A DNA stretch of 52,196 nt, filler included, from Basidiobolus ranarum (Eukaryota), in assembly GCA_040143965.1 (NCBI GenBank). It is 2 parts of 2 records of this genome, joined end to end, with 100 filler letters (N's around TTAATTAATTAA, not from the genome) between each part and the next. Parts side by side here need not be neighbours in the genome. Positions count along the whole stretch, not along the records: positions 26,176 to 52,196 come from JASJQH010007012.1; 1 more part is not named here. One strand, written 5' to 3'. The notes under the pieces were generated by a model that worked only from the letters and a program-made list of their open reading frames with translations, did no database searches and had not been told where the DNA came from. Positions 25,055 through 46,675 of this stretch are shown here, one piece after another. The position numbers were made by a program, and so were the translations under genes. Positions within the stretch are counted from its first letter, which is position 1; every line of letters begins with the position of its first letter.

Positions 25055-26380
25055 CAAATTGGTCTTTGCTGCTGTTGAATACAACTTAGAGATGCATTAT
25101 TTATAGGGTGCATGGTTAGAGTTGATTGGATGAACCATACAGATGCTGATCTTTAGTTGATGCACTAGTACATATTTGATTCTGTTGGACTCTGATTTGT
25201 CTTATGAACAGAATCACCATGTGTCAAATATATAGGTTGATAACTTCCATCTTTGAAATGATATAGTTTGCTTATTTTAAGCAAGAACTGTACCAAAATT
25301 TCTGCACATTTTCTGCTGTTAATTTCACTGCCAAACAACCTTGCACTACAATTCCTCGGAATCCAATTATTTACAGATACAAGTCATGAACTCTGTCATT
25401 TTAAATATCATTTTTATCCAATCCTGGTCTGCTTTTAAACCATTCAATGATTTGGGGTTCAACTAAGGAAGTTACACATAGGGTTATTATGGGAATGTTA
25501 GCACCCTAGAGCTGTAAGTTGCTGTTGCTTATACAAAACTGGAAAAACATACCTTTACCATCATCTTGTGATACCTCCAGACAGCTCAACTTTATCAGAT
25601 TTTACATCTAATCCCACAAGTACAGCTCAAAATTGACAGGTTGGCCATAATAATATGCACTTTGCAGAGAAGGCTTTTTTACATATTGAATTGCTCTGAG
25701 TCCCCAGATCTTTGTTTTTAATCATAGTTCTTGTTCCATTATATATGGCCTATCAGATGCAGTATTCAAAAAATTATTTGGCACTATCCTGTACCCTATG
25801 ACATAATCAATTATAATCATAATTATTCTAGGTCTGATAACCCCTGGCCTAATGGATCATGTATCCACTTGAATCAAGTCAAATTCCAATATCCTACTCA
25901 GCTAGACCTAAACTGTTTCAAAAATGGTAAATAACATCGTGCCGGATAGTGCCCAATAACTGACAATTTCACATGGACCATCATTTTACCGCCCGTGTGC
26001 TCCCTTGGGAACTCCCAGAATGTATAGCAAGGGCCTGTAATCTCTAAGCATTGTGAAAGATGCAGCAGGGAATGTNNNNNNNNNNNNNNNNNNNNNNNNN
26101 NNNNNNNNNNNNNNNNNNNTTAATTAATTAANNNNNNNNNNNNNNNNNNNNNNNNNNNNNNNNNNNNNNNNNNNNACCAATTCCTCTAATTCTCCAAACC
26201 ACTTCCACCAGGCTCCCAAATACTTTAACAAGTACATGGTGAATAACCTCCTCAAACCTGCTTAATTCTTTGGATACAGTTTCTCTTGAAACCCCAGTTT
26301 ATATTAATAATAATAAGTCCTATCTACAAGAGCTATTTATTATAGTTGATATTTTAATATCTTCCTATTAGCATACTTGG
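25055..26380. mobile_element. Probable decayed transposable element spanning the gap
   Basis: Only one CpG counted in about 880 nt (25055-25935) and none in 26176-26380. No intact long ORF. Weak fragments: IIDYVIG on the minus strand (APE-like) and QAPKYFNKYMVNNLL on the plus strand (RT-like). Confidence 0.35.
26076..26175. other. Assembly gap/linker N44-TTAATTAATTAA-N44
   Basis: 100-nt spacer whose central 12-mer gives stop codons in all six frames; an artificial contig joiner. Confidence 0.97.
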
Positions 26381-35394: not shown

Positions 35395-37434
35395 ATGGTT
35401 TCATCTCGCATTGCTGCTTTGACGGCTATATTAGCCAGTCTTTCCTTGACATCAGCCTTTGATGCATCATGTGATAGTAACTTAGTCGCCTACTGGGGAC
35501 AAAACGCTATGGGTATTTTAGACCCAACTGATCGCGCCGTATGGGAGAAACCTCTCGATGAATATTGTAACGATGATACATTAGATGTGATCAACATTGG
35601 TTTCATGAACGTATTCAGCGGCGACGTAGGTTCACTTCCCGGAATCAATCTTTCTTATCACTGCACTGGGCCCACTTTCCCTGGCACCAACCTTTTGAGC
35701 TGTCCCCAAATTGGGGAGCATATTAAATACTGTCAATCTAAGGGTAAAAAGATTACCATGTCTCTAGGTGGTGCGGTTGGATCTTACGGTCTTGATAATG
35801 ACGCTGATAGTGAAAGACTTGCTAAGACCGTGTGGGATCTCTTCCTTGGTGGTTCCTCTCAAACTCGTCCTTTCGGTTCAGCAGTCCTTGATGGGATTGA
35901 TTTAGATATTGAAGCTGGTATTAGCGTAGGATATGGTGCTTTCGTTCAAAAGCTTCGTTCTCATTTCGATTCCGATAAGAGCAGAAAATACTTCACTACC
36001 GCTGCTCCACAGTGTCCTTTCCCCGACTACTTCCTTGGTAATGCGCTTGACCAAGCCTGGTTTGATATGGTGTACATCCAATTCTATAATAACTTCTGTA
36101 CTCCCACTTCACCTGGCCAATTCAACTACGATGTCTGGAATCATTGGGCTACTACCAAATCCCACAATCCTGATGTAAAATTGTACATTGGTACTCTTGG
36201 AAACCCTAAAGCTGGAAGTTATGGTTATATGACTCCTGATGAATTGAAACCTTTGATTGAAAGTACTAGACAAAAGTATTCTAGTTTCGGTGGTGTTATG
36301 ACTTGGGAGGCTTCTACCGCTGAAGCTTCCATGATCAATGGAGTAAGCTTCGCTCAATCTGTCAAGAATATTTTACTTGATGGTGCCAAGTGTAATGGTA
36401 ATTCTACTCCCAAGCCAGAACCCAAGCCTGAGCCTAAACCCACTACCCACAAGCCAGAGCCCAAGCCTACCACCCACAAGCCTGAGCCCAAACCTACTAC
36501 CCACAAGCCCGAGCTCAAGCCTACTACTCATAAACCCGAGCCCAAGCCTACTACTCACAAGCCTGAGCCTAAGCCTACTACCCACAAACCTGAACCTAAG
36601 CCTACTACTCACAAGACCGAGTCTAAGCCTACTACTCACGAAACTGAGTCTAAGCATACTACTCACAAGACTGAGTCTAAGCCTACTACTCACAAGACCG
36701 AGTCTAAGCATACTACTCACAAGACTGAGTCTAAGTCTACCACTCACAAATCCGAGCCTAAACCTACCACTACTCATAAATCCGAGCCTAAACCTACCAC
36801 TACTCATAAATCCGAACACAAGCCTACTTCTACTACTGAATATGTTCCCAACCCTACTCACCCTGCCCTAGGAATTAGTACTTGCCCAGTTCAGAACGCA
36901 CCATGCGATACTGTTGCTTTAGCTTGTAATGGTCATCAATATGGACAGTGCGTTTTCGGTAAGTGGGTTCTTCGCGAGTGTGATGCCCATAACCTTCTCA
37001 CCTGTGTACAAGATGATGCCCTTCTCTATTGCGATTGGGCTTACAAATATCCCGATCACAAACCCTGTACCGACGATCAATCTACAAAGAGAAAGCGTTC
37101 TATTGAAGGACCAAGTGATCATGCTTTGGTAGATTTCGCAGCACCCCTTTACAATACCGACAATTTCAAGACCAATGTTCGTGTTCGTACTACCAGCACT
37201 GCGTTCTCTAACCACTGGAGAGTTCAATTCGATCTTCCTCGTGGACAATCCATTCAAAACAGTACCCGTGGTGTCTTCTCCCAAAAGGGTACCAAAGTAA
37301 CCATTGTCTCTGTTCCTGAAAAGGAGCCTAAATGGAATATGGTCATTCTTATTAACGTCTTGGGTGTCCATAACAGCCTTAGCACCGATATGGTTCCACT
37401 TAATGCCAAGTTCTGGGATCTTGGTGAAATTTAA
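35395..37434 (+). CDS. Secreted GH18 class III (subgroup B) chitinase with repeat linker, Cys-rich chitin-binding module and C-terminal beta domain
   Basis: Signal peptide; AYWGQN, CQSKGKKITMSLGGA, RPFGSAVLDGIDLDIE (DxxDxDxE), AAPQCPFPD, IQFYNN, FGGVMTWE; CBM19-like C..GQCVFGKWVLREC; KRKR dibasic site. Confidence 0.95.
   Translation: MVSSRIAALTAILASLSLTSAFDASCDSNLVAYWGQNAMGILDPTDRAVWEKPLDEYCNDDTLDVINIGFMNVFSGDVGSLPGINLSYHCTGPTFPGTNLLSCPQIGEHIKYCQSKGKKITMSLGGAVGSYGLDNDADSERLAKTVWDLFLGGSSQTRPFGSAVLDGIDLDIEAGISVGYGAFVQKLRSHFDSDKSRKYFTTAAPQCPFPDYFLGNALDQAWFDMVYIQFYNNFCTPTSPGQFNYDVWNHWATTKSHNPDVKLYIGTLGNPKAGSYGYMTPDELKPLIESTRQKYSSFGGVMTWEASTAEASMINGVSFAQSVKNILLDGAKCNGNSTPKPEPKPEPKPTTHKPEPKPTTHKPEPKPTTHKPELKPTTHKPEPKPTTHKPEPKPTTHKPEPKPTTHKTESKPTTHETESKHTTHKTESKPTTHKTESKHTTHKTESKSTTHKSEPKPTTTHKSEPKPTTTHKSEHKPTSTTEYVPNPTHPALGISTCPVQNAPCDTVALACNGHQYGQCVFGKWVLRECDAHNLLTCVQDDALLYCDWAYKYPDHKPCTDDQSTKRKRSIEGPSDHALVDFAAPLYNTDNFKTNVRVRTTSTAFSNHWRVQFDLPRGQSIQNSTRGVFSQKGTKVTIVSVPEKEPKWNMVILINVLGVHNSLSTDMVPLNAKFWDLGEI
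36427..36810 (+). repeat. Coding tandem repeat: 7x PEPKPTTHK-type, 5x TESKxTTHK-type, 2x SEPKPTTTHK
   Basis: Twelve 27-nt units plus two 30-nt units equal 384 nt, read directly from the sequence. Confidence 0.92.
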
Positions 37435-37649
37435 ATGATTTCAGAATGTTATTAACCTAACCCCAACTTTTATCTCTATCATATATCTATATCCCAACTC
37501 TACCTTATATTTATACCCTTACCCCTACTCACTTAGATGTAAAATATATTTCTACTTTTTTAAGAGAATACTGTGTATTCCCTTTTAAAATAGTGCTCTC
37601 TACATAGAATCAGAGGAGGATGTAATCACATTCAATAAATGTATAGGCA

Positions 37650-37757
37650 ATATCTTCGATATTATTCAGTGGTATTTTTTTATATTTATATATCGTCGAT
37701 ATTATTCAGTGGTATTTTATTTATATTTATATATCGTCGATATTATTTAGTGGTATT
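37650..37757. repeat. About 40-bp AT-rich tandem repeat, about 2.6 copies
   Basis: TCGATATTATTYAGTGGTATT recurs at about 37656, 37696 and 37737. Confidence 0.85.
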
Positions 37758-38008
37758 ACTTTTATTTAGTGGCGAGAAAGAAATCGGAATTTATGTATAA
37801 CAAGGACGAGATAGTGTAGTAGTAGAATGGCTTTAGAATTGAGTTTAACTTTTAAATAACGCTGGTAGTGAACCATACAAAAGTGGGAGCAGAGAGAGGA
37901 GAAAGGAGGGATAGGGGCAGGAGAGAGATAAAAAAGGAATTAATTGGTTTAAATTTAAGAAACAAATAAATATATTTATGTTGACTCCTTCATTGATCGT
38001 TATATATG

Positions 38009-38851
38009 TCATTTCCGTTGAAATTCAATATCTTCGAATACTGACATCTTGGGGATTTCTGGTAGATCAAAATTACTGGATGTTTTTAATAAAACCGAAT
38101 GGGATTTGGGCTTCTCGTTGATCCGAGAGTATCCAGTACACATTTGAATGAACTCCATCAAAACCTCTGGGTTGCTCAAATAATCATCTTTAGATAAAGT
38201 TGGCGATGTCATATCCCATTGTTTGTTGATGGTCTAGAGAAGAATAGTTAGAATGGAGCAATAGCAATGATCTTGCATGTACGAACTTACCGTGAGCATT
38301 CCTGTATCTGCATCGAAGCTTAAATGTGCATGATGATTAAAGTTGGTGGGATTAGAGACTCCTTTCATTGGTGAACGCTATCAATTAACCAATATGTCAG
38401 TCTAAGGGTAACAAGAGAGGATGCAGACCATGGACGTTAACCTTGTATATAGAATCCATCCAGGACCACATTTCTCCGTCACTTTTACAAGTGATATAGA
38501 TATTTCTTGTTTCCGAACAGATTTTAAAGCAGTAAGGTTTGAGTTCTGACCTTTCCAGGTCACGTATTTCTTCATAAAATATTGTTTCCAGTGCTTTTAC
38601 TTCATTCTTTAATAAAGTGAACGAAAAATGGGTTTCAGTTGAGTTTCAATATGAGGTGAAAGGACTTTACTTACGTGGACTTTGTGAATGGTGATGCAAG
38701 TGTTCTTCAAAGTAACCAACCGTTTGGACCATAACCAGCTGGTCATTCCATTTCCACGTACTGAGAAATGCCCCTTTTTAACCGTCTCCAAGGTAATACT
38801 CTCCTGAGAGTCGGTGGGTGAGGAAGTAGTGCTTGGGTACTGATCGTTCAT
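38009..38851 (-). CDS. Cla4/PAK-like PH + CRIB protein without a kinase domain (217 aa); exons 38851-38675, 38606-38442, 38377-38291, 38233-38009
   Basis: VKKGHFSVRGNGMTSWLWSKRLVTL...LERSELKPYCFKI...IYITCKSDGEMWSWMDSIY (Cla4-type PH); GVSNPTNFNHHAHLSFDADTG (CRIB); LSKDDYLSNPEVLMEF (inhibitory-switch-like). Three phase-0 GT-AG introns. Confidence 0.85.
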
Positions 38852-39827
38852 TTGGAGTTTACTTTTTATCTGTCACGTATAGCTAACTAAACACGTTCAC
38901 TGTATTGAAAAGTATAGTAAGAAATGAAGAATAAAAGGATTCAAGAGAATATTCTCTAAGAATAGCAAATATAGAAGCGAGGAGTATTGTCTATGAGTTG
39001 GTAACTAAATTAGCGGGTGGCTGTGGTAACCGAATGAGAATGAATGAATTGGACTAGCAATTTGAATTAGTGGGAAATCTAAAAATTCGAGAAAATTTGA
39101 CGATGAACAGGAAATATAAAACCGGGAATCAATTCTTTTTATATTCCATTGAGTGTGAAAGAGCGAGAAAGAATAGTTGACTGCAGAGGGGAACGCACCA
39201 AGTGACTAATATTAGGATGAGCATCTCAGGGGCTATGTCTACCTTCACCTTCAGCTCTACATTCAACAGCAATGCGGGATAAGTATTGCAGGCGAGCATT
39301 TGTAGACACCTTATTCTCCTCCTATTCGTGGCTACTTTATGTATACATTTTATGCTCTTTAAACATAAGGATTACATTGCATTGCTGTCTTGGAATGGTT
39401 ACGGTTGTCTCCGAGTTTGGTAAGAAGATAGTTGTACAGAGTTGTCATCCAAAGTCATCCACAACCCACTCAGAATCCCCAGACCCATACTATTACTGAT
39501 ATAGCTTGGGCACACAAAGTTAAGATCAGCAACTGAGAGGAAGGGGAAAGTTACTCATTACCAGGGTAGCGTTCCTATGAAATGAGTTGATATAGGGTGA
39601 GAGGTTCCTCTGAAATAGGGTGATTTTCATTTGAGCTGCAGGAATAATTTAATGTGATCCTACATTACTGAGATGTATTATTCTGCGTTCAGTAATCAAA
39701 TTAACTTTCTTATCAGTGAGGATGTGTAGTGGCTTAGTCATTGAACAGAGTCTGACTATTAAATAAACTTTAATCAATTTTCGGATTTGATGTTGGGAAC
39801 GTGCTCTTCAGTGTCTTCTTGTAAACC

Positions 39828-40862
39828 ATGATACTGACCGAGTCATTTGTTTTAAAGAAGTCAGGGGCGAGGGAGTTGAGTGAGATACGCGTTCTGAACT
39901 TATGGTAAGGTGAAGTGAGCTCTGAGAGAGCCAGGGATTTACGATTAGTTAACCGAAATCTTCCATCAAAGGGGACTGGGTTTGAAGGATATCAGTGTGC
40001 TCAAGAAGTTGGTGAATCTAGAGGTGTTGGATTTGAGGTGAGGTACAGTGCCCGCAACATATAAGAGCCAGACAGAAAGTACTCAACAATATTTAGCGTA
40101 AACCAAGTAACATCCATCAGACCACTGTATCATTGTCAGTACCAAAAATGAAGAACATATCTCCGATGGATTCTAATCTATTGAATAGGTCGTGAACTGC
40201 GTGAACTTTATCTTCGCAAAAACGCGATCAAATTAAGCGACTTGAAGGAAATTCATCAATTAAGTACTCTACGTATTCTCTGGCTGACAGAGAACCCGTG
40301 CGTGAAAGAATCACGGTATTACGAGTTTCTACTGCGTCGATTACCTTTGCTCCAAAAGCTGGATAATAAGGGTATGGTACCACTATAATATACAGCATGA
40401 AATTTACTCAAGCTAAACTCAATGTTACTCCAACTAAATACTAATGCAGCAATCGAGTCAGACAACAATAACAAGCAGAAAGAAAAGCAAGTAGGATTAA
40501 GTAGAGATAATACGACATTCCATTACAATAAACACAAAGTCGCCCCTATCGTCAGTCGATCTGTTGGTGTTCAGACTGAAGAAGCGTCGTTTAGAGTTGA
40601 TCAACATGTAAGTTAATTTAGTTGCCTATCACTACTACACTCCTACCGCTCACACTCTTGAAATTCACCACTTAGCCTAGCAAACCCAGCATCAAGGTAG
40701 GTCACATATGCATGTCAGGTTGGATGCTTCGCTAATGGTTTGGTTTAGAAGTCTGGCCAATTAAGTATCATATTATCGATATTACTTCTACTGCGCGAAC
40801 TGGGTATAGAGGAAATCCATTTAATTCATGAAATTCTTGAGAAATATATTACTTCCGGTTAG
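39828..40862 (+). CDS. CFAP410: CFAP410/C21orf2-like LRR protein (218 aa); exons 39828-39904, 39972-40037, 40097-40134, 40189-40371, 40450-40607, 40676-40696, 40749-40862
   Basis: MILTESFVLKKSGARELSEIRVLNLWGLGLKDISVL..LEVLDLSVNQV..LRELYLRKN..LRILWLTENPC..LLRRLPLLQKLDN and C-terminal ILSILLLLREL, colinear with remembered CFAP410. Exons sum to 657 nt in frame. Confidence 0.88.
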
Positions 40863-41027
40863 CCATCGAAGAAGAGCAAGTTCATCGAAGTTAACTATCG
40901 AAGAAATCATACTATTTCACTTTTATATTCCTGTATCAAAAGAAAGCGGACTAAAATACACAGAACTATTCCAGAACAGAAGAACAAATAAAATGAGCTG
41001 TAACTAATACAATGATTATGGGAAACA

Positions 41028-44251: not shown

Positions 44252-46036
44252 TTAATTGGTTGGTTGTGGTGGATAAACACCTTGCGAGGTCCCACTCTTA
44301 CTTGGAGGGTAGGGTACGTTGTCCTTACTTCCGGGGGGTGGATAACCGGTACTGCTTTTGGTTGGTGGATAAGCGGCACTTTGTTGAGGTGGATAGGCCT
44401 CACCCTGTTGGGTCGGACGGCCAGGTCCGTTTTTGGGTGGATAATCAGCACCATTTTTGGTAGGAGGGTAGGTTACACCTTGAGGTGGATACCCAGTATC
44501 GTTTCTAGTGGGTGGATATGCTTTGCCTTGTTGAGGTGGATATCCAGTATCATTTTGAGCCGGAGGATATGGTGCACCCTGTTGTGGTGGATAACCAGCG
44601 TTACTTTTGGCAGGTGGATAACCAGTACTGCTCTTACTAGGGGGATATGGTGCGCCTTGCTGTGGTGGGTAGGCTTCCCCTTTTTGAGGGGGATAACCAG
44701 TACTGCTTTTACTAGGTGGATACCCAGTATTTTTTTGTGGTGGATAACTAGCATCGTCTTTACTAGGTGGATATGCTTGACCTTGTTGAGGAGGATATGG
44801 AGCACCACCTTTACTAGGTGGGTATGGTGCGCCTTGTTGTGGAGGATAGCTAGGACTGGTTTTACCAGGTGGGTATGCTGCATTTTGTGGTGGCGGGCGA
44901 TCCGCGTAAGCTGCATTAGGTGGATATGGAGCACTGCCTTTGCTAAGCGTGTATGGTGCACCCTGTTGTGGAGGATAACCAGCATCATCTTTAGCGGGTG
45001 GATAACCAGGACTGGTTTTACCAGGTGGGTGTGCTGCATTTTGTGGAGGCGGGCGGCCCGCATAAGCAGCATTAGGTGGATATGCCCCACCTTGCTGGGG
45101 TGGATAACCAGTATCACTTTTAGTGGGTGGGTAGGTCTCACCTTGTTGAGGCGGATAACCAGCACTACTTTTGTTAGGTGGATACGCCGAATTTTGTTGA
45201 GGTGGATGGTTTGCGTAACTTTTAGTAGGGGGATAGGCCGCACCTTGCTGAGGCGGGTAACCGGAACCATCAGCTCTACTGGGAGGATAACCGCTATTTT
45301 GCGAGGGAGAAGGAACTCTTTGAGGAGGGTAACCGGAGGAAGCACCACTAGGTGAAGGAACCCTTTGGGAAGGATATCCACTGTTTCCACTAGCAGGGTA
45401 TAGTCCTTGGTTCTGAACAGGTCTGGGTGGATACCCACTGTTTAAGTTAGGGGACTGAGTGTGAGAGCTTCCGTTCGAGGGATGATGTTCATCTTCAGAT
45501 TCGGATCCAGTTAGAACATCGTCCAAATTTTCCCCAGGACCGTTATTTGACGTGAAAGAAGGAGCTTTACCAACCAGAGCCTCATACACAGGGGCCCAAT
45601 CCTGTGGATTGGTAGAAGAAGAAGTAAGAACAAAGCCAATATTGAGTTCTACTTCACCACTAATCTGGTCTTTACTACTTTTTTGTTGGAGTGGATACCA
45701 AGCGGTTCTTTTTTTACTAGGGTCAAAAGATATGGGTACTCCATCCAAAAAGAATTCTCGAAAAGAGAGTGTCAATTGGCCCATAAAGTCTCTACCAAGA
45801 AAGTCACTATCCCAGCAGACGAGTTGTATAAACTTCGGTGGTGAACGCATATTAACTTTGTATTCATAGGAAAAATTCCAAACTGGGTTTAAACTTTTAG
45901 AGATGACCTTGGAGGACTTCTTTTTGTTTAGAATCTTAATGACCACGAATGGGTCCGAGAGTCCGTTGCGGTCTTTCGGAGTAAGGTTACGAGCTTGGAT
46001 AACCTCAATTTTAATGGCTGAAATGGAATGACTCAT
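44252..46036 (-). CDS. C2-domain protein with long GYPP/Pro-Gln-Tyr low-complexity tail
   Basis: IEVIQARNLTPKDRNGLSDPFV..KSLNPVWN..CWDSDFLGRDFMG (C2 with Ca-binding Asp residues), followed by dozens of YPP repeats. Confidence 0.88.
   Translation of the reverse strand: MSHSISAIKIEVIQARNLTPKDRNGLSDPFVVIKILNKKKSSKVISKSLNPVWNFSYEYKVNMRSPPKFIQLVCWDSDFLGRDFMGQLTLSFREFFLDGVPISFDPSKKRTAWYPLQQKSSKDQISGEVELNIGFVLTSSSTNPQDWAPVYEALVGKAPSFTSNNGPGENLDDVLTGSESEDEHHPSNGSSHTQSPNLNSGYPPRPVQNQGLYPASGNSGYPSQRVPSPSGASSGYPPQRVPSPSQNSGYPPSRADGSGYPPQQGAAYPPTKSYANHPPQQNSAYPPNKSSAGYPPQQGETYPPTKSDTGYPPQQGGAYPPNAAYAGRPPPQNAAHPPGKTSPGYPPAKDDAGYPPQQGAPYTLSKGSAPYPPNAAYADRPPPQNAAYPPGKTSPSYPPQQGAPYPPSKGGAPYPPQQGQAYPPSKDDASYPPQKNTGYPPSKSSTGYPPQKGEAYPPQQGAPYPPSKSSTGYPPAKSNAGYPPQQGAPYPPAQNDTGYPPQQGKAYPPTRNDTGYPPQGVTYPPTKNGADYPPKNGPGRPTQQGEAYPPQQSAAYPPTKSSTGYPPPGSKDNVPYPPSKSGTSQGVYPPQPTN
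44270..45430 (-). repeat. Coding imperfect repeat (YPPQQGAPYPPSKSSTG-like)
   Basis: Recurrent GGTGGATA/GGATAACC units; an internal duplication of the PPNAAYAxRPPPQNAAxPPGKTSP block. Confidence 0.85.
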
Positions 46037-46675
46037 ATTATATTGAAGTGTGTATAGAAGTTAAAGATAAAAAGTGCGAGTTCAAGAGTGAGGTAGTTGT
46101 ACTGGTAAGAGTCCCTTAGGATGTAAAGAAATGAAACTGATTGATAATACTGACTCTGTGGCTTTGAGCGAGGGATACTGGATAAATCCTAATTACAGGG
46201 TTCAATCTGAGTAAAATACAACCTTGTTGGTAGACCACTCAAAAGTAGTAAATTTGCGAGTACTTGGAAAAGCCAAGACATTGGACTGTATTTAGCATGG
46301 CACCACATCCTTTCTTGACTTTTTCGAGGCTTAACTATAACCGGTTTTTCAAAAGAATATTGAGTGGCACAGTGGCTCAGATATGAATCCAGATACTTTA
46401 CACAGTCAGATAATTTCAGCCAATCAACTATATGCCAATATATTCGTCCTCACCTCATGCACATATGCTTGCTCAGATAACGAAATCTTGTATTTGACCA
46501 GGAAACGAATGTGCAAAAGGATAACTCAGACGCGCTTGAGGGCGAATTTTATGCCATACATGATCGGAGCCGAGGTGGGTTCACCCTTAGCGAACTAGGG
46601 GCGTCCTCTGAAATCCGACCGACACAGAGATTTGTTCATCACCGTTATCCATGTGGAATACTTGGAATTAAGTAA

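Follow-up and report, generated by a model that had tools for sequence, protein, structure and literature searches.

Putative non-catalytic Cdc42/Rac effectors derived from the Cla4 kinase in Basidiobolus

We analysed a 52,196-nt stretch of DNA from Basidiobolus ranarum (the window; all coordinates count along the whole stretch), in which contig C7012 carries a gene encoding the PH and CRIB domains of a Cla4-type PAK but no kinase domain. The sequence data indicate that kinase-less Cla4 derivatives of this type are a real, selected and lineage-specific family with an undescribed conserved tail. The window gene descends from Cla4, as judged from its sequence, but fails two features that define a PAK, namely the kinase and an intact inhibitory switch. 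We think it probable, though far from assured, that its product goes to membranes, acts there as a non-catalytic Cdc42/Rac effector and recruits a partner through its tail, and that the kinase and kinase-less copies now divide the ancestral jobs between them.

The window gene occupies 38851–38009 on the minus strand, where four exons encode an open frame of 217 amino acids followed by TGA (38009..38011). Exon 1 (38675..38851) encodes residues 1–59, comprising a Ser/Thr-rich N-terminal tail (about residues 1–22) and the first half of the PH domain, the second half of which, including its C-terminal helix, is contributed by exon 2 (38442..38606, residues 60–114). Exon 3 (38291..38377, residues 115–143) carries the CRIB core (residues 121–134, about 38318–38359) and a β-hairpin. 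Exon 4 opens with a degenerate inhibitory switch (residues 144–176, 38135..38233) and closes on a C-terminal motif (FDLPEIPKMSVFEDIEF, residues 198–214, 38021..38071), which is the most conserved element of the protein. The three introns (38607..38674, 68 nt; 38378..38441, 64 nt; 38234..38290, 57 nt) are all GT..AG and all in phase 0; two alternative acceptors for intron 1 were rejected, as both give stops. Pfam finds a PH domain at residues 24–114 (E = 2.9e-9) and a PBD at residues 121–169 (E = 1.2e-8), and nothing else at E ≤ 0.001. The frame and these matches bear out the original prediction of four exons encoding a Cla4-type PH domain and a CRIB with both histidines, followed by a stop. 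The product is letter-for-letter identical to database protein P0001, which is named 'Protein kinase [Basidiobolus ranarum]' and clusters with Cla4 sequences.

Downstream of the stop codon, a spacer of 574 nt (37435..38008) extends to a convergent chitinase-like gene. The spacer has a GC content of 29.6% and contains three copies of a 41-nt unit at 37650–37768, in agreement with the roughly 570 nt of AT-rich repetitive DNA originally described. When the entire window and the four other kinase-less loci were searched by tblastn with a Cla4 kinase domain, nothing scored better than E = 1.1 and no kinase remnant turned up, which upholds the proposal that no kinase exon fits here. The gene sits in the interior of contig C7012, away from any N.

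The PH exon matches nine places in the genome. Five are kinase-less (the window gene and loci C7253, C7079, C7173 and C7450) and all end after the shared C-terminal motif, whereas the other four (C1019, C7750, C7469 and C7327) are full-length Cla4 genes that each continue into a complete kinase domain. The same motif closes two B. meristosporus proteins, P0003 (216 aa) and P0005 (231 aa). The original prediction had proposed looking for a separate full-length CLA4 and for PH–CRIB-only orthologues, and both exist in the numbers just given; it missed the multigene family shared with B. meristosporus and the status of the C-terminal motif as the most constrained element. The seven kinase-less members form one clade with support of 100/100 in trees of 49 and 48 rows (19 rows were dropped for the latter) and fall into three subfamilies, two of which contain both Basidiobolus species. 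The branch leading to the family is long (0.91 changes per column in the 49-row tree). Because the positions of introns 1 and 2 are common to all nine genes and that of intron 3 to seven (it is missing from C7173 and C7450), the family must have originated through DNA duplication of a Cla4 gene. The window protein resembles Cla4/Skm1-type PAKs (PH–CRIB–switch–kinase) in PH and CRIB sequence, domain order, all three intron positions and the relic of a switch; it differs from them in having no kinase, in having lost the switch motifs and in ending at a motif that is missing from the four B. ranarum kinases.

The kinase-less genes are under purifying selection. Approximate Nei–Gojobori ratios of nonsynonymous to synonymous substitution rates (dN/dS) are 0.069 for the window gene and C7253 (217 codons, dS 1.63) and 0.052 for C7173 and C7450; the two full-length Cla4 pairs, compared over their N-terminal halves, give 0.034 and 0.047. 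Together with the open frame, the value for the window gene sustains the earlier judgement that it is not a pseudogene. The genes form four pairs (C7012/C7253, C1019/C7750, C7469/C7327 and C7173/C7450) with dS of 1.46–1.63 in three pairs and 2.8 in the fourth, and Sec18/NSF adjoins both the window gene and C7253; the similar dS of the pairs and the shared neighbours suggest an old genome doubling or hybridisation.

The strongest conservation lies in the tail. Between the window gene and C7253, residues 198–214 are identical at 17/17 positions, with proportions of nonsynonymous and synonymous differences (pN and pS) of 0.000 and 0.75, respectively. The CRIB region comes next in constraint (26/29 identical, pN 0.067), and the PH domain is identical at 72/91 positions. 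C7173 and C7450 share 17 of 19 residues of the motif, the family form of which is LPEIP-[KR]-[LM]-S-x-F-[DE]. A profile built from the seven family motifs was run on 205 other proteins and on the four full-length loci read in 12 frames. It matched P0008 of Neoconidiobolus thromboides (10.6 bits) and P0124 of Tieghemiomyces parasiticus (10.5 bits), compared with 0.1 for the next best protein and 5.0 for the best of 30 local shuffles, and the loci of the four B. ranarum full-length kinases yielded no match in any of their frames. P0008 and P0124 both have a canonical switch and carry the motif in the linker, which identifies the C-terminal motif as an old part of the Cla4 linker. The sequence of P0124 continues into the beginning of a kinase domain, and P0008 breaks off at the pre-kinase helix, the site of an intron in B. 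ranarum; we therefore take both to be incomplete models of full kinases. These comparisons indicate that the kinase-less genes kept an ancestral zoopagomycete Cla4 linker motif that this genome's four kinases do not have.

Within the motif, [KR]-[LM]-S is present in all nine carriers and is followed by hydrophobic and acidic residues, a context that we take to resemble a PAK-type phosphorylation site. Other possible assignments fit only part of the set: a class II SH3 ligand (PxxPx[KR]) fits C7173, C7450, P0008 and P0124 but not the subfamily of the window gene, and Atg8-type or PDK1-docking-type readings of the acidic-aromatic end fit only some members.

In contrast to the tail, the inhibitory switch has decayed. 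Our comparison set consisted of 42 other Cla4-type rows, comprising 40 of the 205 other database proteins, with fragments removed by hand, to which four genome models were added and from which two B. meristosporus rows were moved to the family; three near-duplicate pairs are included. Nineteen columns of the switch are conserved in 80% or more of these rows, and the window protein retains 3 of them. The motif G[LMI]PxxWxx[LIM]L is found in 41/42 rows, an NPQAV-type motif in 40/42 and L[EDGQK]F[YF] in 42/42, and none of the three occurs in any of the seven family members; subfamily II has lost the switch Trp altogether. Aligned to the PAK1 fragment of PDB 1F3M, the first switch helix (residues 145–157) is two residues shorter, and in our structure model it is not helical, although the Asn-Pro kink and the last two helices are kept. 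The same alignment places Pro154 at PAK1 Ser110 and Cys175 at PAK1 Tyr131, the latter position being Cys in 5/7 family members. According to the part of PMC6821231 consulted, Ser110 sits in the switch–kinase interface, Ser110Thr and Tyr131Cys are human gain-of-function switch variants, and Leu107Phe is activating (as is L107F in the consulted part of PMC3784770). The switch of the window protein is thus, by its sequence, a relic rather than the intact segment originally described.

The targeting domains are better preserved. Relative to the 42 rows, the window protein retains 11/14 conserved columns in the CRIB region and 13/22 in the PH domain, and the CRIB S, P, F, H and H are retained in all seven family members (S122, P124, F127, H129 and H132 in the window protein). 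The β1–β2 stretch of its PH domain contains six Lys/Arg and no Asp/Glu, compared with 7–8 and 3 in the four full-length Cla4 proteins. A structure model built on a 111-sequence alignment has a mean predicted local-distance difference test score (pLDDT) of 77.6 (a 6-sequence alignment gave 35.8) and consists of the PH domain, the CRIB hairpin, helices at residues 158–163 and 165–176, and a disordered tail. The PH fold is predicted with confidence (pLDDT 89–98 across residues 21–110), and the best Foldseek match to the model is the TAPP1 PH domain (rmsd 1.4 Å). The nearest ESM Atlas clusters (0.93 and 0.90) consist of PH/PBD proteins that are 236 and 307 aa long, which may be fragments and were not used as evidence. 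Judged by characteristic motifs, the genome has four Cdc42-like and two Rac-like genes.

The reading that we favour is as follows. A duplication of a Cla4 gene within the Basidiobolus lineage preceded the separation of B. ranarum from B. meristosporus, and one copy dropped its kinase exons and diversified into the three subfamilies, as the tree, the common introns and the selection data show. With no kinase left to restrain, the kinase-contacting face of the switch decayed, while the PH domain, CRIB core and short linker motif were retained. PH and CRIB would together bring the protein to anionic membrane that contains active Cdc42-GTP or Rac-GTP, where the C-terminal motif may recruit a partner. 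Recruitment would probably be controlled by a PAK-type kinase phosphorylating the invariant Ser of the motif, given the site preference of PAKs, and competition for the GTP-bound GTPase would be a side effect. Because the four kinases kept the switch and do not have the motif, the catalytic and docking jobs of the ancestral kinase look to have been split between the two sets of genes. An adaptor or decoy role towards Cdc42/Rac, one of the functions originally suggested, fits this sequence pattern.

A second kinase-less set occurs in mushroom-forming fungi and consists of tandem (PH–CRIB)x2 proteins, of which nine were examined (eight named entries, on contigs from 23 kb to 3 Mb). They come from Crucibulum, Ephemerocybe, Coprinopsis, Panaeolus, Arthromyces, Infundibulicybe, Jaapia and Lyophyllum, and the entries are P0060, P0080, P0084, P0086, P0088, P0093, P0114, P0121, P0142 and P0145, and also P0112. 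Several are labelled kinases in UniRef; they are uncharacterised and known as database entries. A kinase motif was found in none of the nine, and NPQAV-type and LEFY-type switch motifs in none of their 18 units. Like the Basidiobolus family these proteins are Cla4-derived and kinase-less, but they differ in having two tandem units and no C-terminal motif. In the trees they fall among agaricomycete Cla4 proteins, and an approximately unbiased test rejects a common origin with the Basidiobolus family (P = 0.0115), which indicates that the tandem family arose independently, from agaricomycete Cla4. Among other short PH–CRIB entries, Tuber P0015, P0018 and P0019 (three species, 338–346 aa) have no kinase, a canonical switch and an odd shared C terminus, and are probably mis-spliced models of full Cla4. 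These three, together with entries from Dendrothele and metagenomes, were set aside as probably truncated models, as they either retain the canonical form of the switch or stop where the shared intron lies.

Several simpler accounts of the window protein must be weighed against partner recruitment. It could be a pure buffer or decoy, in which PH and CRIB sequester or shield Cdc42/Rac-GTP and thereby tune the size or lifetime of polarity sites, the tail controlling only turnover or localisation, for example as a phospho-degron or an Atg8-type motif. The intact PH domain and CRIB core, the missing catalytic domain and the five paralogues, which could tune dose, all accord with this, as do the mushroom proteins, whose independent origin without the motif fits plain GTPase capture. 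However, it is the tail and not the CRIB that is most constrained, and the tail was inherited from the kinase linker, which together suggest a specific partner; we regard a pure buffer as a minority possibility. A trans-acting PAK inhibitor, as originally proposed, would dock its switch relic on the kinase lobe of Cla4 or Ste20, or present its tail as a substrate or pseudosubstrate, until released by Cdc42/Rac-GTP. The kinase-inhibitory segment of PAK1 offers a model for a (pseudo)substrate-like tail in the active site, and in the family the tail Ser is invariant and follows a basic residue, while switch helices 2 and 3 are kept and constrained. PAK1 itself inhibits in trans within dimers, according to the part of PMC6821231 consulted. 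Inhibition through the switch is nevertheless disfavoured, and this part of the original proposal goes unsupported, because all seven members have lost the three signature motifs; the first helix is also shortened and absent from the model, substitutions fall at the two positions where human variants weaken autoinhibition, and subfamily II has no switch Trp. A complex prediction for residues 118–217 with a stand-in Coemansia Cla4 kinase domain scored 0.00, in a run made with no alignments and with an uncertain partner fold, and carries no weight either way. We consider such an inhibitor unlikely.

Still less probable is a repurposed protein that binds Cdc42/Rac poorly and whose PH domain and tail serve another pathway, for instance as a lipid or trafficking adaptor. 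The length of the family branch and the family-wide changes in the PH domain and just past the CRIB histidines point this way, but the CRIB ranks second in constraint and both histidines persist in all seven members. A last idea is that the gene is an artefact, be it a pseudogene, an assembly error or the first half of a Cla4 that is split or trans-spliced. In its favour, short PH–CRIB database entries frequently represent pieces of full kinases, as with P0008, P0124 and P0007. It is opposed by strong purifying selection, by the missing kinase remnant and by seven genes in two species that stop at the same motif. A search with a Cla4 kinase exon reduced 134 candidates to ten matches, four Cla4-type and six Ste20-like. 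Each of the four Cla4-type domains, 93–100% identical to the query, is preceded by a PH–CRIB of its own, leaving no orphan kinase half, and the split-gene idea was rejected; of the six Ste20-like matches, the five examined (all but C375) are on contigs with a CRIB match. An artefact is largely refuted and very improbable. None of 657 candidates at E ≤ 1e-10 was a longer P0001 homologue, a result that reflects a limit of the word index, as an unindexed search found many full-length Cla4 proteins.

Some observations weigh against the effector reading itself. The CRIB matches only five of the eight published core residues exactly, with two conservative substitutions and one change (V for I, L for V and S for G; consensus from the part of PMC8847673 consulted), and V133, retained in 41/42 other Cla4-type rows, is altered in all seven family members; GTPase affinity or preference may therefore differ. 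The switch relic is still constrained, with helices 2 and 3 identical at 17/21 positions between the window protein and C7253 (pN 0.078, pS 0.78; 21/21 within both full-length Cla4 pairs), and so may still bind something. The motif occurs in just 2 of the 205 other proteins scanned, so its ancestral role is thinly sampled, and the dN/dS values are rough because dS is near saturation (1.6–2.8). In the Cla4 tree the family groups with the B. ranarum Cla4 proteins at 76/75, and the alternative of P0008 as sister group is not rejected (P = 0.395).

If the effector reading holds, the window protein most likely works, by analogy, like the known non-kinase CRIB effectors without belonging to them. 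Gic1 and Gic2 in yeast and the Borg/CEP and SPEC proteins in animals likewise combine a CRIB and no catalytic domain with short extra partner-docking motifs, such as the septin-binding BH3 of Borg (PMC5134998 and PMC8847673, which review such effectors, consulted in part). Unlike these, the window protein is derived from a PAK by kinase loss, on the evidence of tree and introns, and has a Cla4-type PH domain. Beyond the CRIB no homology to these effectors was seen, though no search aimed at it was made. The extended Borg/CEP form of the CRIB consensus, with F-G-D-x-S-F-L at its end (from the consulted part of PMC8847673), does not occur in P0001; the BH1–3 domains were not profile-searched. 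No PH–CRIB-only effector is listed in the portions of PMC8847673 and PMC5134998 consulted. Engineered PAK fragments, CRIB or autoinhibitory, that serve as GTPase probes or as inhibitors also present an isolated CRIB, which binds active Rac1/Cdc42 in GST–CRIB pull-downs (PMC3164470, in part), but they are laboratory constructs with an intact switch, whereas the window gene is natural and its switch has decayed. Elsewhere in the genome, L054 (C653, 1540–1989, plus strand) and L053 (C6948) have CRIB-like matches that end Ser/Pro-rich frames; the sequence retrieved there shows no kinase motif, and both are possible Gic-like non-kinase effectors.

Several neighbouring features were also recorded. 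The convergent chitinase-like gene (35395–37434, plus strand) is intronless, with 27-nt and 30-nt Lys/Pro/Thr repeats; Pfam finds only CBM_2 and a weak CBM_19 in it and no glycoside hydrolase family, and it contains what we take to be a DxxDxDxE-type motif. Directly upstream of the window gene, in a fungus that has no flagella, lies a multi-exon leucine-rich repeat (LRR) gene (about 39576–40900, plus strand). One of its exons (40185–40373) has PDB 8AXJ as best match (E = 1e-6), although the gene may belong to another LRR family, and a PDB search with its putative C-terminal helix exon found no match. PDB 8AXJ represents the N-terminal domain of CFAP410 from a trypanosome, where this protein belongs to the basal body (PMC11865075, consulted in part). 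A cilia-associated gene in a non-flagellate fungus would be notable if that is what the LRR gene is. A 602-aa frame at 44252–46060 (minus strand) is rich in Pro/Gln/Tyr repeats after an N terminus that we presume to be C2-like, and at 26076–26175 two N runs around 12 bases lie between C7011 and C7012.

We found no description of a natural kinase-less Cla4/PAK in the literature searched, which omits most subscription journals, and the kinase-less proteins carry the label 'Protein kinase' in NCBI and UniRef, an annotation error. PAK genes without a kinase would offer a clean natural test of PH–CRIB targeting apart from catalysis, and of the share that scaffolding by Cla4 has in polarity. That the losses are reciprocal, the switch having gone from one set of genes and the linker motif from the other, suggests that Cla4 of early-diverging fungi has a docking motif for which we found no description. 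The parallel family in mushroom-forming fungi suggests that PAKs can repeatedly give rise to CRIB effectors without a kinase. We tentatively propose that fungi have at least twice made Cla4 into a non-catalytic Cdc42/Rac effector by kinase loss and switch decay, and that in Basidiobolus the kinase-less copies took a phospho-controlled linker docking motif that the kinases lost, giving an adaptor that the kinase may itself phosphorylate.
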